Positions 6,067 to 11,219 of a stretch of DNA of 64,000 nt are shown piece by piece. How positions within the stretch are numbered: the first letter of the stretch is position 1; the number at the start of each line of letters is the position of its first letter. The DNA comes from an uncultured bacterium (GTDB taxonomy: Bacteria; Verrucomicrobiota; Verrucomicrobiia; Verrucomicrobiales; Akkermansiaceae), in contig CAMACY010000004.1 of assembly GCA_945831585.1 (NCBI GenBank), positions 2,830 to 66,829 on the forward strand. Direction: 5' to 3'. Position numbers and translations under genes: made by a program. The notes under the pieces are model-generated. The model did not search any database and was not told where the DNA came from. It was given only the letters and a program-made list of their open reading frames with translations.

Positions 6067-6111
6067 AAAAAAGCACCCACTCCCCCGGGACGGCGGAGCG
6101 GGTGTGAAAAA
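6067..6111 (-). terminator. Rho-independent terminator of PEP-CTERM gene 1, related to those after genes 2 and 3
   Basis: On the minus strand: acacccgctcc...ggagtgggtgc-tttttt. Confidence 0.7.
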
Positions 6112-6127
6112 GACCGATGAGCTATGT

Positions 6128-6817
6128 TTAGTGGCGGCGGCGGCGAGCAGCCAAACCGGCCAGAGCCAGCAGACTCAGCGTCGCCGTAGCGGGTTCCGGA
6201 GCAACAACCGCCCCGCGAGTGATGGAAATGGTCGTCGTTGTACCGGAGGGAACGTCGACCGTGCCCACGTTCGTCAGCGTTGCATAGTTGAACGTGCTGA
6301 CAATGTTGGTATCGCGCTTGGTGTCGAACGTCACCGAGCTACCTTCGTTGGAGCTAAACTCAATGTAGGGAGTATCCGCATCGGCATTGTAGGTGAGGGT
6401 GAAGCTGAACGTCCAAGGCGCCGAATCGGCCGGCTCCGTGTAAACGACATTGGTCATGCCATACCCCCAACTGTTGGTGCCGATTTCCACCTTCTTATTG
6501 GTCGTACTACCCACATATATCCCGAACTGATCTTTACCCTTAGGATTACCATACGGATCGGATGTACCGAGCAACCCCGTACCCCAAGAATTGGCAAAGG
6601 AAGGAGCCGTGGTGGTGACGGACAGGCTGAAGCTCTCGCTTCCCAGCTCGATCCCGGCATCCGCCAGCGTCAGCGTGAAGCTGCCCGCAAGGGTCGTCGT
6701 GAAGGTTTCCGTCTGGTCAGCATAACTCGTCGTCCGAGTCCAGTCAGCCGAGGTTGTCTCCGCATAGGCGCAAATGCTGCTCACGGCAGCCGTCGCCAAC
6801 ATAATTGTTTTTTTCAT
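6128..6817 (-). CDS. PEP-CTERM sorting-domain surface protein 1
   Basis: Signal peptide MKKTIMLATAAVSSICAYA, Thr/Ser-rich body, C-terminus VAPEPATATLSLLALAGLAARRRRH. Confidence 0.9.
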   Translation of the reverse strand: MKKTIMLATAAVSSICAYAETTSADWTRTTSYADQTETFTTTLAGSFTLTLADAGIELGSESFSLSVTTTAPSFANSWGTGLLGTSDPYGNPKGKDQFGIYVGSTTNKKVEIGTNSWGYGMTNVVYTEPADSAPWTFSFTLTYNADADTPYIEFSSNEGSSVTFDTKRDTNIVSTFNYATLTNVGTVDVPSGTTTTISITRGAVVAPEPATATLSLLALAGLAARRRRH

Positions 6818-6924
6818 GATTGTATTTCTTTTTTGATGTTCCGACTCCCGGAGCAAGTCGCCCTCAGAGCACGCATCGCGTGGATGTTTTTACCGGCGCA
6901 GCTCGGCAAAAAAACCTGCGCGCA

Positions 6925-7180
6925 GGATTGTAAGCATTCTGAATGCTGTAGTCAAGGATTATTTCATGAAAATATCATGCATCGCCTAACGCATTGTTTA
7001 TCAATGCGATATATGCTATAAATCATCTTCATCATCGGGCGCCGTTGCCAAGACACATCGAATCAAATTCACAGAAATTCTTTCGCGCCGCAAAAATCCA
7101 AGCACTTGATTTATTTGCAAACCGCTCAATATAAGAGCCTTACAAAAAGAGAGCTACAGCATTCAGAATGCTTACAATCC
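6925..7180. promoter_or_regulatory. Putative invertible promoter segment 1: 27-bp perfect inverted repeats (6925-6951 and 7154-7180) around a 202-bp AT-rich segment
   Basis: ggattgtaagcattctgaatgctgtag is the exact reverse complement of ctacagcattcagaatgcttacaatcc. Both repeats carry the -10 TACAAT. The -35 TTGACT is complete only on the left (6950-6955, minus strand); the right has AGAGCT. Confidence 0.75.
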
Positions 7181-7285
7181 CCGGCGTGAGGGTTTCTGCC
7201 GAGTTGCGCCGGCAGGGACATCCACAAGGATGCGGGAGGGCTCATGCTGCTTTCTCTGCTCGACAACCATCAAACAAAAAATATC

Positions 7286-7948
7286 ATGATGAAAAAAACA
7301 ACATTGATTTGTGCGGCAACCCTCAGCAGCGTTTGTGCCTATGCTGCAGACATCGTGACCACGATCGAACCCACCGCGTTTGTGAACGGCACCGCAACGC
7401 TCTCCGAGAACTTTGCTCAGACCGCCACCGAGTGGAGCATCGAGACGACGTTTACCTACAAGACGGACACGAAAATGGGCTATTGGGGCACGACGATTCT
7501 GTCTACCGCATCGAACCTGACACAGGACAGCTACAAGGGAGGGTTGCAGGTGTATGCTAGCAAAGATGGGAATCTCGTCGTTAAAGGCTGCGGCTTTGAC
7601 AACGGCACCTCTGGTACAGCCCTGGGCAGCACTCTGACGGCAGACAGCGGCTATACCGTTGTTCTCGATGTGGTGTACAACGACACAGAGAAGAATTATA
7701 CCACATCACTGACCTTGAAGGGGTCTGACGGGGTTAAGATTGGAAACACGGCGACATCGACCTACACCTTCCAGGAAAGCAATGTGATCTCCCATCTTTA
7801 CACGGCTTGCGGTCAGGGTGCGGCAACGTCTTGGAGCGCTCCCTCGGTGACGCTGAAGACGTCGGGCGTATTGGTTCCCGAGCCCGCGACCGCGACGCTG
7901 AGCCTGCTGGCGCTGGCCGGTCTGGCGGCGCGCCGCCGTCGTCACTAA
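7286..7948 (+). CDS. PEP-CTERM sorting-domain surface protein 2
   Basis: Signal peptide MMKKTTLICAATLSSVCAYA; C-terminus VPEPATATLSLLALAGLAARRRRH. Confidence 0.9.
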   Translation: MMKKTTLICAATLSSVCAYAADIVTTIEPTAFVNGTATLSENFAQTATEWSIETTFTYKTDTKMGYWGTTILSTASNLTQDSYKGGLQVYASKDGNLVVKGCGFDNGTSGTALGSTLTADSGYTVVLDVVYNDTEKNYTTSLTLKGSDGVKIGNTATSTYTFQESNVISHLYTACGQGAATSWSAPSVTLKTSGVLVPEPATATLSLLALAGLAARRRRH

Positions 7949-7951
7949 GGA
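7872..7951 (+). repeat. 80-bp direct repeat identical to 9164-9243 (PEP-CTERM anchor coding sequence)
   Basis: tggttcccgagcccgcgacc...cgtcgtcactaagga occurs twice, 1292 bp apart; the downstream terminators are also nearly identical. Confidence 0.9.
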
Positions 7952-7973
7952 ATATTTTTCTCTGTATTTTTCG

Positions 7974-8008
7974 CACCCGCTCCTCCGCCATGGGGGAGCG
8001 GGTGTTTT
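7974..8008 (+). terminator. Rho-independent terminator of PEP-CTERM gene 2 (possibly bidirectional)
   Basis: cacccgctcc-loop-ggagcgggtg-tttt, preceded by T tracts. Confidence 0.75.
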
Positions 8009-8099
8009 GCGCAGGCGATCGCGCAGGGGGGGGCTGCATGTCGCTTGCGGCAAACGACAAGGCGCCATCCGACTGAAGCCCGCCCATCTACCATCCATC

Positions 8100-8335
8100 A
8101 GCTTTTGGAATGCTGTAGTTGCCTGCATACTAAAGATTCACAATCAATATATTGCAGATATTGTAGTATTCAATTTTAGCGTGTCCGGCTGCGTTGTGTG
8201 CGAGCGCTGCTCGTCGCGCCAAGAGAAACTCAGAAAAGAATAAAGAGCCATAATATACTGAGCATGAAGGAGTCGTGAAAAAACCAACATTCTTGACAAA
8301 TCATCCTTGACTACAGCATTCCAAATGCTTAAAAT
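8100..8335. promoter_or_regulatory. Putative invertible promoter segment 2: 19/20-bp inverted repeats (8100-8119 and 8310-8329) around a 190-bp segment
   Basis: The reverse complement of the left repeat (actacagcattccaaaagct) matches the right repeat (actacagcattccaaatgct). The right end forms TTGACT(8307-8312)-17-TAAAAT(8330-8335) facing gene 3. Confidence 0.7.
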
Positions 8336-8409
8336 GCGCTGCGGCGGCGTTATGCCTGCTTAGGGCAGGTGCCCCCTGCACACGGACAACATCATCTCAG
8401 CATTCTGTT

Positions 8410-9240
8410 ATGAAAAATACTCTCCTACTCACGGCAGCCGCGAGCGCTACGCTCAGCGCATTTGCCACAGACACACTCACGGCAGAGGTCACCTCCGGCG
8501 GTGATCTGCTGCATGTTTCAGAATACGGCTATTTTTGGAATCTTCAGGACACAACCGGCGTAACCCGCCCTGAGGGAACAGGAAATGCGTGGGCGGGTGT
8601 TCCCAAAAACAGCGGCAGCACATACCAAAGCGAAGGCAGTGTCTACCAAAAACTCACGACGCAGGGCAACACCGACTACAATCTGCGTCTGGGAGGGGAG
8701 AGTGTCGACTTCACGCTCAGCTCTGATGTCTATATCAACCAGCTGAGCACCGTGAGCGGCCTGACCTCCACGATCATCCGATTCGATGGCGGCACCTTAA
8801 CATCCTCCGGCTCCATGGGTTTCGGTTCCTCCACCATTACCTTAGATGTCAGCGCCATCGCCGCCGAGGGCAATATCTTCAGAACAACGCTGCTGAGCTC
8901 GGATCGCATCTTTGGCTTCGGCACCAAGTTCGACAATCTGACGCTCAGCGGCGGCAGCATGGACTATAAGGGTGTTCTGTTCTACAACCGCAACGCAAAA
9001 AAATATTACAACTCGGCGGATATCAGCATCAGCAATGGCTACTACGGCGTCAAGGATGGCGCGACGGCTGTCACCATCGATCAGTCGGCCTGGGGTTCCT
9101 ACCTCGTGGCTGACATCACGGCTAACAGCGGGGCGTCGATCAAGTCGCTGTCGTACCTGACCGTGGTTCCCGAGCCCGCGACCGCGACGCTGAGCCTGCT
9201 GGCGCTGGCCGGTCTGGCGGCGCGCCGCCGTCGTCACTAA
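8410..9240 (+). CDS. PEP-CTERM sorting-domain surface protein 3
   Basis: Signal peptide MKNTLLLTAAASATLSAFA; C-terminus VPEPATATLSLLALAGLAARRRRH. Confidence 0.9.
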   Translation: MKNTLLLTAAASATLSAFATDTLTAEVTSGGDLLHVSEYGYFWNLQDTTGVTRPEGTGNAWAGVPKNSGSTYQSEGSVYQKLTTQGNTDYNLRLGGESVDFTLSSDVYINQLSTVSGLTSTIIRFDGGTLTSSGSMGFGSSTITLDVSAIAAEGNIFRTTLLSSDRIFGFGTKFDNLTLSGGSMDYKGVLFYNRNAKKYYNSADISISNGYYGVKDGATAVTIDQSAWGSYLVADITANSGASIKSLSYLTVVPEPATATLSLLALAGLAARRRRH

Positions 9241-9264
9241 GGATTTTTTTCATTGTCTTTTTCG

Positions 9265-9301
9265 CGCCCGCTCCGCCGCCATGGGGGAGCGGGTGTTTTT
9301 T
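9265..9301 (+). terminator. Rho-independent terminator of PEP-CTERM gene 3
   Basis: cgcccgctcc-loop-ggagcgggtg-tttttt. Confidence 0.75.
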
Positions 9302-9363
9302 CGAGCAGCGGGGCGCCCCTTTAGGCTTGCGGTGCGGGCATGCTTGGTGTACACTGCCAGGGT

Positions 9364-10206
9364 ATGAAAATGTCTCCCTCTCTCCCTCCCGCGCGGGCGC
9401 TGCGGGGTTTTACGCTCATCGAGCTGATGGTGGTCATCGCCATTTTGGCTGCGCTGGTGTCCATCGCCGCACCGACGATTTATTCCCACATGGGTGCCGG
9501 GACGGAGGCCAAGTGCCGCGCCAATCTCGAGCAGCTTGCTCAGCTGGGTGCCAGGTACAGCAGCGATTTGGCCAATCGCGGCACCCTGCCCACCAGCGGC
9601 ATGAGCGATGACGAGGAGACGCCCCATGTCGACGAGAGCGAGGGTTGGTGGCTCATGCTGGCGCCGGAGCTCGACGCCGTGGTGCTGCCGCAGAAGCCGG
9701 GCGCCAAGATGAAGGTCTCCGCCATCTTCCACTGCCCCGCGGACAAGCGCCACCCCATCGACAACGACTCCACCTTTGCCGCCGACACCAAGAGCATCTC
9801 CTACGTCTCGTGGACGGACGGCAGCGAGGATCGCGACAACCCCAACTCCGGCATCAACACCCGCGCCAAGCAGAACCTCGACATGCTGCCCTGGCTCTCC
9901 GACGGGCTGCCCGTCAAGGGCAAGAGTGTCACCACCGCCGCCGATTTCCGCAAGCAGGTGGCGCCCGCCGCCGAGCGCCACGACGGCAAAATTCTTGTGC
10001 TCTACGCCAGCGGCGTGGTCAAGGCGGTCGACTACGACCCGGAGACGGACAAGGCCGACGCTCTCTTCAAGAAACTGGCTCCCGCGCTGGCCAAGAAGGG
10101 CGCCAAGGGCGGCAAGAAGGGCAAGGGCGGCAAGCAGTCCGCCGAGGACGAGGAGGAGGATAGCGCCGCAGACGAGGCGGACGACAGCGGGGACGACGAC
10201 GCATGA
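9364..10206 (+). CDS. Type IV pilin/pseudopilin-like protein with prepilin cleavage motif and H-X9-DG-like C-terminal motif
   Basis: RGFTLIELMVVIAILAAL; late RH-DGKILVLYA-SG; Lys-rich then acidic tail. Promoter TTGCGG-17-TACACT ends 8 nt before the ATG. Confidence 0.85.
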   Translation: MKMSPSLPPARALRGFTLIELMVVIAILAALVSIAAPTIYSHMGAGTEAKCRANLEQLAQLGARYSSDLANRGTLPTSGMSDDEETPHVDESEGWWLMLAPELDAVVLPQKPGAKMKVSAIFHCPADKRHPIDNDSTFAADTKSISYVSWTDGSEDRDNPNSGINTRAKQNLDMLPWLSDGLPVKGKSVTTAADFRKQVAPAAERHDGKILVLYASGVVKAVDYDPETDKADALFKKLAPALAKKGAKGGKKGKGGKQSAEDEEEDSAADEADDSGDDDA

Positions 10207-11219
10207 TGCCCGAAGCACAGCCCTGCCCTCCCTCCCGACCGCTGCCGCTGGCAGCGGTTTGTTTGCCCCACCTGCGCGGCGGGCGCGTGCTGGCGGGGCT
10301 GAGCGGCGGGCGCGATTCCGTCGCGCTGCTGCGGGCGCTGCTGGCGGAGGGCTGCGAGCTCTGCGCCTGCCATGTGCACCACGGTCTGCGCGGCGCGGCG
10401 GCGGATGCCGATGAGCAGTTCTGCCGCGAGCTCTGCGCGCGGCTGGGGCTCCCCCTCGTCGTGCGGCGGGTCGATGTACCCGCGCTGGCGCGGCAGCGGC
10501 GCGAGTCGCTCGAGACGGCGGCGCGCGCGGCGCGGCGGGCGGCGCTGGCGGAGGTCGCGCGCGAGCAGGGCTGCGCCGCCATCGCGCTGGCGCACCATGC
10601 CGATGACCAGGCGGAGACCGTCCTCTTCCGTCTGGCGCGCGGGGCGGCGGGCGCGCGCGGCATGCGCGCCGTGCACCGCGCGCAGGGCGTCCTTTGGCTG
10701 CGCCCCCTGCTGGAATGCCGCCGAGCCGAGCTGACAGCCTGGCTACGCGAGCGCGGACAAGCCTGGGTAGAGGATGCCACCAACGCCCAAGCCTGCGCCG
10801 CGCGCAACCGCCTGCGGCTGGAGGTGCTGCCCGCCCTCAACCGCGCGCTGGGTCGCGACACCGTCCCCATTCTGGCGCGCAGCGCCCGCGTGCAGGAGGA
10901 GACGCAGGAGGCCCTGCAGGAAGCCCTCGCCCGCCTGCCGCTCACCGACCCGCAGGGGCGGCTTTACCTGCCCGCCCTGCGCGGCGCAGGCGCTGCCTTG
11001 GTTCGCGCCGCCCTGCACCGCTACCTCAGCCTCGGCGGCGTGCCCGACATCAGCAGCAAACTCATCGACGACATCACCGCCATCCTCCCCGCCGACGCCC
11101 CGGTCGCGCGCGTCAACCTGCCCGGCGGCGGACAGGTCGCGCGGCGGCAGGGGCGGCTGGTGCTGCTCAGCCCCGCGGGCGAGCCCCGAGCGGTCATCTG
11201 GCAACATATTGCTTCATGA
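10203..11219 (+). CDS. tilS: tRNA(Ile)-lysidine synthase
   Basis: PP-loop LSGGRDSVAL, HVHHGLRG, HHADDQAETVL, RNRLRLEVLP. Confidence 0.9.
   Translation: MMPEAQPCPPSRPLPLAAVCLPHLRGGRVLAGLSGGRDSVALLRALLAEGCELCACHVHHGLRGAAADADEQFCRELCARLGLPLVVRRVDVPALARQRRESLETAARAARRAALAEVAREQGCAAIALAHHADDQAETVLFRLARGAAGARGMRAVHRAQGVLWLRPLLECRRAELTAWLRERGQAWVEDATNAQACAARNRLRLEVLPALNRALGRDTVPILARSARVQEETQEALQEALARLPLTDPQGRLYLPALRGAGAALVRAALHRYLSLGGVPDISSKLIDDITAILPADAPVARVNLPGGGQVARRQGRLVLLSPAGEPRAVIWQHIAS

Follow-up and report, generated by a model that had tools for sequence, protein, structure and literature searches.

Segment 2 (8096-8333), a short stretch of DNA upstream of a gene for a secreted PEP-CTERM protein (gene 3), is probably a working ON/OFF inverton for that gene, and it stands in the ON orientation in the present assembly. 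Our inference that it flips is a strong one, drawn from what is observed of its site anatomy, its promoter geometry, its membership in a genome-wide site family and the flipping of its sister elements. The acting recombinase and the effect on transcription at this locus are predictions from sequence. The DNA analysed, here called the window, is a 64-kb stretch (C4:2830-66829) of genome assembly G000 (1.92 Mb in 94 contigs, 63.9% GC; a genome of about 1.9 Mb), whose host strain occurs in the pig gut. Coordinates are collected in Table 1.

Table 1. Features of the segment 2 locus and its relatives. Positions are those of the window unless a contig is named.
Feature	Location	Strand	Remarks
Gene 1	6128-6817	-	PEP-CTERM; segment 1 target, ON in the window
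Segment 1	6929-7176		sites 6929-6951 and 7154-7176; core CTG/CAG; same family as segment 2
Gene 2	7286-7948	+	PEP-CTERM; opposite segment 1 target
Gene 2 terminator hairpin	7973-8005	+	-31.4 kcal/mol (+ strand), -24.4 kcal/mol (- strand); z-scores -5.2 and -4.2
Segment 2 left site	8096-8118		CATCAGCTTT-TGG-AATGCTGTAG; outer arm degenerate, inner arm perfect; no -10 beyond it
Segment 2 interior	8119-8310		AT-rich, putatively invertible; right end holds the -35 TTG, preceded by A/T-rich DNA
Predicted sigma-70-type split promoter	8307-8335	+	TTGACT-17-TAAAAT; 10/12 consensus matches
Segment 2 right site	8311-8333		CTACAGCATT-CCA-AATGCTTAAA; also serves as the 17-nt promoter spacer
Gene 3	8410-9240	+	276-aa secreted PEP-CTERM protein; predicted controlled gene
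Switches outside the window (about 16)	G000 C1, C2, C3, C5, C6, C16, C34, C37, C39, C52 (two), C54, C60, C62, C67, C78
Family sites at G000 contig ends	C1:1-175, C65:10024-10139, C77:5567-5953, C78:1-357, C92:3706-3850
C67 switch	G000 C67:4275-5531; G015:C20 (L014 453-632)		recombinase-adjacent; variant site ACTGCATT..AATGCAGT

Sites and interior of segment 2

Segment 2 is bounded by a 20-nt inverted repeat (8100-8119 and 8310-8329) in which 19 of 20 positions pair (95% complementary) and whose arms lie 190 nt apart, which confirms the first-pass annotation of this DNA. The arms are two copies of a 23-bp near-palindromic site, CTACAGCATT-N3-AATGCTGTAG. A 19-nt core pattern, CTACAGCATTCNRAATGCT, allowed up to three mismatches, matched the window four times (at 6933, 7154, 8100 and 8311), against 0.02 matches expected from shuffles. 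The 3-nt core at the middle of the sites, TGG/CCA, is identical in the inverted register only. Measured against the family consensus, the left site has no mismatch in the ten positions of its inner arm and four in its outer arm, including GCTTT for GCATT; the right site pairs a perfect inner arm with two outer-arm mismatches, leaving the left outer arm the more degenerate of the two. At family sites shown to flip, outer-arm mismatches number 3 to 5.

The GC content of the interior is 41%. This DNA is a weak paralogue of the interior of another family member, G000 C78:134-348, and an Rfam search with it returned no credible match. The inner ends of segments 1 and 2 that carry the -35 are 89% identical over 38 nt (6927-6964 and 8298-8335), in keeping with a match seen at first inspection. 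To the left of the left repeat, the position for a -10 reads GATGGA and the first feature is the gene 2 terminator hairpin, so that the earlier description of a repeat lacking a -10 and facing a terminator was borne out. A run of eight G residues (8026-8033) lies between this terminator and the left site, and at the C1 switch a G9/C9 run lies directly against the right site. Both runs may be slippage-prone tracts.

The predicted split promoter and gene 3

A predicted promoter, TTGACT-17-TAAAAT, is completed at the right end of segment 2 and nowhere else on the segment, and it points toward gene 3. The border of the invertible DNA runs through its -35 (8307-8312), and its -10 (8330-8335) belongs to the fixed flank, 75 nt upstream of the gene 3 ATG. 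Between 5900 and 9400 the best consensus score is a three-way tie of this promoter, the segment 1 promoter toward gene 1 and a site abutting the gene 2 ATG. Because the -35 is at the invertible edge and the -10 is in the fixed flank, inversion would swap TTGACT for GCAACT before gene 3; the computed inverted state, a consensus prediction, is GCAACT-17-TAAAAT. The first-pass annotation had placed a complete promoter toward gene 3 at this end, which we confirm, and had proposed that inversion dismantles it, which the computed sequence supports at the level of consensus prediction. By consensus matching, the connection between the segment 2 promoter and gene 3 is predicted to depend on orientation.

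The gene 3 product scores above the cut-offs of both Pfam PF07589 (23.4 bits; cut-off 20.7) and TIGR02595 (21.3 bits; cut-off 16). As expected of PEP-CTERM cargo, the protein carries a PEP motif at its C terminus together with a transmembrane helix and a basic tail, and G000 encodes an exosortase. That exosortase gene is the only one in the genome (Exosortase_EpsH at C18:5879-6622, E = 2e-47). Genes 1, 2 and 3 all encode small secreted PEP-CTERM proteins.

The 3′ ends of these genes are themselves repeated. The DNA for the PEP-CTERM tail and terminator is 98% identical between genes 2 and 3 (7872-7958 and 9164-9250), and gene 1 has an inverted copy at 83-85% identity; the hairpins lie at 6073-6105, 7973-8005 and 9264-9296. 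This repetition suggests gene conversion or modular 3′ ends. Downstream of gene 3, the protein encoded at 9340-10206 combines a prepilin-type N-terminal methylation domain with a long tail rich in Lys, Asp and Glu, and the stop of its gene overlaps the tilS start at 10203.

A genome-wide family of paired sites

The first-pass annotation had assigned segment 2 to the same site family as segment 1. That assignment holds, and the family extends well beyond the window. Scanning G000 gave about 18 pairs of the 23-bp site on 15 contigs, 96-222 bp apart centre to centre, together with a few single copies near contig ends. The spacings fall into two classes, roughly 96-155 bp and roughly 200-222 bp. 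In register, the family site is a 23-bp near-palindrome with the consensus TTACAGCATT-NNN-AATGCTGTAG. Its inner arm is nearly invariant, with ATG at positions 15-17 in 36/36 sites and C at position 18 in 35/36, and its outer arm (..AGCATT) is looser. The site motif occurs in 21 of 31 genomes of the genus, where a control pattern gave 0 hits.

The 3-nt cores of a pair are identical in the inverted register at 16/18 pairs and in the direct register at 0/18, and cores of different loci agree in 4.2% of comparisons. Cores that are inverted-identical within a pair and variable among pairs are the signature of paired recombination sites. One could instead read the palindromes as operators that bind a dimeric transcription factor, with the main operator overlapping the promoter spacer, an auxiliary one further upstream and no inversion at all; the twofold symmetry of the sites and their overlap with the promoter spacer are what such a reading has to offer. 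An operator, however, has no need of a core that is inverted-identical in 16/18 pairs yet variable from locus to locus, nor would operators explain why the DNA is physically inverted at segment 1, between C67 and its G015 counterpart and between loci L020 and L032, or why the sites adjoin tyrosine recombinase genes in 35/80 loci. Core covariation and the observed inversions contradict the operator hypothesis for the family, and we rejected it; for segment 2 we give it almost no credence.

Read as recombination sites, the pairs share one promoter design. Exactly one inner end carries a -35 in 18/18 pairs, recognizable as ...CAAG or TCAA directly after the inner arm. On the other strand these letters form the -35 (TTGACT or TTGCTA), the site makes up the 17-nt spacer, and a TAnnnT hexamer then follows in the fixed gene-facing flank. 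This split design is found at all 18 loci. The interiors have a GC content of 29-45%, compared with 63.9% for the genome.

Most genes beside the switches encode PEP-CTERM proteins, and of the 15 PEP-CTERM genes in G000, nine have a family switch next to them. The other switch-adjacent genes include those for lipoproteins and a giant surface protein, as well as polysaccharide genes; as a set, these neighbours are cargo of the kind usually subject to phase variation. Some switches, segment 1 and C3 among them, are toggles between two divergent genes, and others are of the ON/OFF type, with a far end that faces no gene. The C54 switch and its counterpart G015:C61 face a convergent terminator, as segment 2 does; the repeat facing no gene, to which the earlier description had drawn attention, is a recurrent arrangement in this family.

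Family sites also tend to lie where assemblies end. Seven of 43 are within 400 nt of a contig end, a zone that makes up 3.9% of the genome, and several public contigs of other samples stop at or just inside the repeats. This enrichment is suggestive only; it is compatible with mixed orientations breaking assemblies.

Inversion of sister elements

Segment 1, located 1.1 kb upstream of segment 2, toggles one -35 between the divergent genes 1 and 2. Its promoter, TTGACT-17-TACAAT at 6955-6927 on the - strand, is the mirror of the segment 2 promoter. Inversion of segment 1 is seen directly in other assemblies of the same strain. Three public assemblies (ERZ27292448, SRR5666660 from Logan, and ERZ8810619) carry the segment exactly inverted, with 100% identity elsewhere. 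Compared with the computed inversion of window 6700-7400, their contigs are 100% identical over the full overlap; compared with the native form, the flanks alone reach 100%. In a further assembly, ERZ11448883, contig NODE_667 begins 28 nt inside the segment 1 interior and agrees letter for letter with the predicted inverted junction, and NODE_461 stops precisely where the left repeat meets the interior. Segment 1 is an assembly breakpoint in both ERZ11448883 and ERZ27292449. The first-pass reading of both loci as recombination sites is therefore established for segment 1 by exact inversion; at segment 2 we infer the flipping.

Other members of the family differ in orientation between genomes. 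The C67 switch has an orthologue in G015, which is a sister species at about 88% identity (deposited as Akkermansia sp. PUUB15_bin.039). The flanks of the two align colinearly and their interiors run in opposite directions, with 96/128 identities in reverse complement versus 64/128 forward. In one of the two orientations, the -35 of this switch faces the recombinase gene. L020 and L032 have identical interior ends in swapped positions. The C78 paralogue of segment 2 shares its TGG core; one of the C78 flanks is of the GCTTT type, and the other, of the TAAGCATT type, has a -10. Its interior aligns with that of segment 2 in the same direction, and its -35 abuts the opposite flank type, which places C78 and segment 2 one inversion apart.

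At five loci of the ON/OFF type (C39, C52a, C52b, C54 and C62), public assemblies showed no orientation but the native one, and some contigs stopped at the repeats or slightly inside them. Flipping may be rare at such loci, or one state may be strongly favoured. Since consensus assemblies hide minority states, loci seen in a single state fit a switch with a favoured state.

Orientation and history of segment 2

Wherever segment 2 could be read, in the window, in ERZ27292448 and in ERZ11448883, it is ON, and none of these three assemblies has the inverted form. The predicted junctions of that form are the left flank ...CATCAGCTTTTGGAATGCTGTAG followed by TCAAGGATGATTTG, and GTATGCAGGCAACTACAGCATTCCAAATGCTTAAAAT. 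Segment 1 is flipped on the ERZ27292448 contig and segment 2 is unchanged, which indicates that the two switches act independently. A contig search with gene 3 and 3-kb and 10-kb flanks gave eight contigs, one of them readable. Every gene 3 contig on record also carries gene 2, so none breaks at segment 2. Flank-anchored patterns for segments 1 and 2 gave 0 hits each in the JGI metagenome collection, from which the species is absent.

The main rival to a working switch is a locked copy that no longer flips, or does so very rarely, so that gene 3 has a constitutive promoter and the left site is a relic. The uniform ON state in three of three assemblies would fit such a fossil, as would the lack of assembly breaks at segment 2 when several occur at segment 1, the four mismatches in ten positions of the left outer arm, and the absence of the segment from G015, which speaks against long-term conservation. 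A relic should decay, however, and both inner arms of segment 2 are perfect and its cores identical. Outer arms that are equal or worse do flip (3 and 3 mismatches at segment 1, 5 and 4 at C67), and the GCTTT variant is also present at the flipped C67 site and at C78. Minority orientations, moreover, are masked in consensus assemblies. We regard a locked or rarely flipping copy as improbable, with a chance that is small without being negligible.

The wider history of the locus bears on a second rival. A search of 40 relatives turned up no orthologue of segment 2, and nothing in G015, the nearest among them, matches the interior. Segment 1 is present in G015 in the same orientation, and the gene 2 body and segment 2 are absent. 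In their place, G015:C22 (L002 1089-2280), compared with window 6880-9240, has a gene 2-type leader and signal peptide fused to the gene 3 orthologue. This fusion indicates that segment 2 was gained or lost as part of a cassette whose boundary is the signal-peptide cleavage region. A difference of a whole cassette (gene 2 body, segment 2 and gene 3 leader) might be expected if the segment 2 sites recombined mainly with C78 or segment 1, giving larger inversions or cassette swaps, and C78 has cores and arms identical to those of segment 2; some G015 interiors also look shuffled between loci. Yet the cassette boundary falls at the signal-peptide cleavage region and not at a site, the cores of segments 1 and 2 differ (CTG and TGG), and in ERZ11448883 the region 7154-10448 is colinear with the window and 100% identical to it in an assembly with segment 1 flipped. 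Long-range partners are very unlikely to be the main use of these sites. Recombination between segments 1 and 2 through their 38-nt inverted repeat is likewise unlikely, given the differing cores and the colinearity of the region in other assemblies.

Candidate recombinases

A search for serine recombinase (Resolvase-family) genes found none in G000, and a serine invertase was dropped as a candidate. The genome has seven tyrosine recombinases. Four of them, on C26, C35, C48 and C67, are paralogues that are 36-48% identical to one another; all four match the Phage_integrase catalytic domain (PF00589), and R203, K231, R279/H280, H302 and Y312 are invariant in their alignment. By these features, the four are candidate invertases. 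The C67 recombinase lies 25 nt from a switch of the same design as segment 2.

More than 570 relatives of this enzyme family turned up in metagenome-assembled genomes (MAGs) whose deposited name is 'Akkermansia sp.' or Akkermansiaceae; the faeces sampled were those of goats, horses, buffalo, deer and humans. Of 80 loci fetched from other genomes, 35 have a GCATT-N3-AATGC pair whose cores are identical in the inverted register, placed 8-53 nt upstream of the point where the recombinase gene starts, and this adjacency links the two families, that of the enzyme and that of the sites. Among these 35 loci, the end that carries the -35 is the proximal one in 23 and the distal one in 12, never both or neither, so both states exist across the family. 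The segment 2 locus lacks an adjacent recombinase gene, and its inversion would have to be catalysed in trans.

Model

We propose that a tyrosine recombinase acting in trans, one of the four candidates, would bind both palindromes of segment 2, and that strand exchange around the identical TGG/CCA cores would flip 8119-8310. In the ON state, the interior would supply TTG and A/T-rich DNA, the site the spacer and the fixed flank the -10. In the OFF state, the TTG of the -35 would be replaced by GCA and the A/T-rich upstream DNA would be moved away. The displaced -35 would face GATGGA and the bidirectional gene 2 terminator, so nothing else would be switched on. Tyrosine recombinases are normally intolerant of differing cores, and the difference between the CTG core of segment 1 and the TGG core of segment 2 should block recombination between the two switches. 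Combined, the two switches could produce four surface types, in which either gene 1 or gene 2 is expressed and gene 3 is on or off.

A broader reading can be offered tentatively, and it is more doubtful than the switch itself. The approximately 18 switches may form a single split-promoter regulon served in trans, in which the palindrome is the spacer, the cores are labels and the cassettes are mobile. The locus-specific 3-nt cores could then act as address labels against recombination among dispersed sites, occupancy by the recombinase could modulate transcription directly, and a cassette of switch, leader and signal peptide could move between PEP-CTERM genes. The gain or loss of the gene 2 body and segment 2 relative to G015 suggests such movement.

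Relation to known systems

Phase variation by invertons beside PEP-CTERM genes is a principle already published for Akkermansia. The inverted-repeat motif of A. muciniphila invertons, CGGATT..AATCCG, was reportedly described by Jiang et al. in Science in 2019. According to one account, the many A. muciniphila invertons that share this motif ('inverton group 138') lie beside PEP-CTERM and autotransporter genes and flip in vivo, and 17-bp repeats around about 160 bp are described there; the part consulted links no invertase group to group 138 (PMC11892184). Both orientations of the A. muciniphila cps1 capsule inverton have been shown experimentally (PMC13343947).

The system described here has much in common with that of A. 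muciniphila. The phylum is the same, and MAGs of G000 relatives were deposited under the name 'Akkermansia sp.' In each of the two systems a genome contains dozens of short invertons, with one shared motif and similar sizes, that adjoin PEP-CTERM, autotransporter and capsule genes, and the PEP-CTERM enrichment of group 138 is found here as well. The sites differ, being CAGCATT-N3-AATGCTG here and CGGATT..AATCCG in group 138: GGATT-N3-AATCC occurs in 1 of 97 fetched loci, versus 39 loci with GCATT-N3-AATGC. The host also differs, being an uncultured pig-gut lineage with 64% GC and a 1.9-Mb genome.

Two better-known systems resemble this one in part. Mpi of Bacteroides is a serine recombinase, and in Bacteroides the entire promoter lies inside the invertible DNA. 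The capsule-promoter invertons of Bacteroides fragilis are flipped by Mpi as a global invertase (Krinos et al. 2001, as cited in PMC13343947). Like that system, ours consists of dispersed promoter invertons with one repeat family, mostly without an adjacent recombinase, served in trans and controlling the surface. Unlike it, G000 lacks a serine recombinase and the promoter is split across the site. In E. coli fimS, the tyrosine recombinases FimB and FimE invert a short promoter segment before a surface-structure gene in an ON/OFF manner; the promoter is complete between 9-bp repeats and the dedicated recombinases are adjacent. The ON/OFF logic, the surface-gene target and, presumably, the tyrosine recombinase class are shared with fimS, whereas here 23-bp palindromes form the promoter spacer and the segment 2 locus has no recombinase of its own.

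The segment 2 locus itself is thus a further example and not a new principle. What the family as a whole adds to the Akkermansia-type inverton system is a further host, an uncultured pig-gut lineage of high GC content, with a different palindrome and a candidate recombinase family. It also provides a clean set of criteria by which sequence alone can reveal such switches: a palindrome whose 3-nt core is identical in the inverted register, a -35 on the invertible DNA and a -10 in the flank. About 60% of the PEP-CTERM surface proteins of this genome (9/15) appear to be under such control, which is relevant to the surface variation of gut Verrucomicrobiota toward host immunity and phages.
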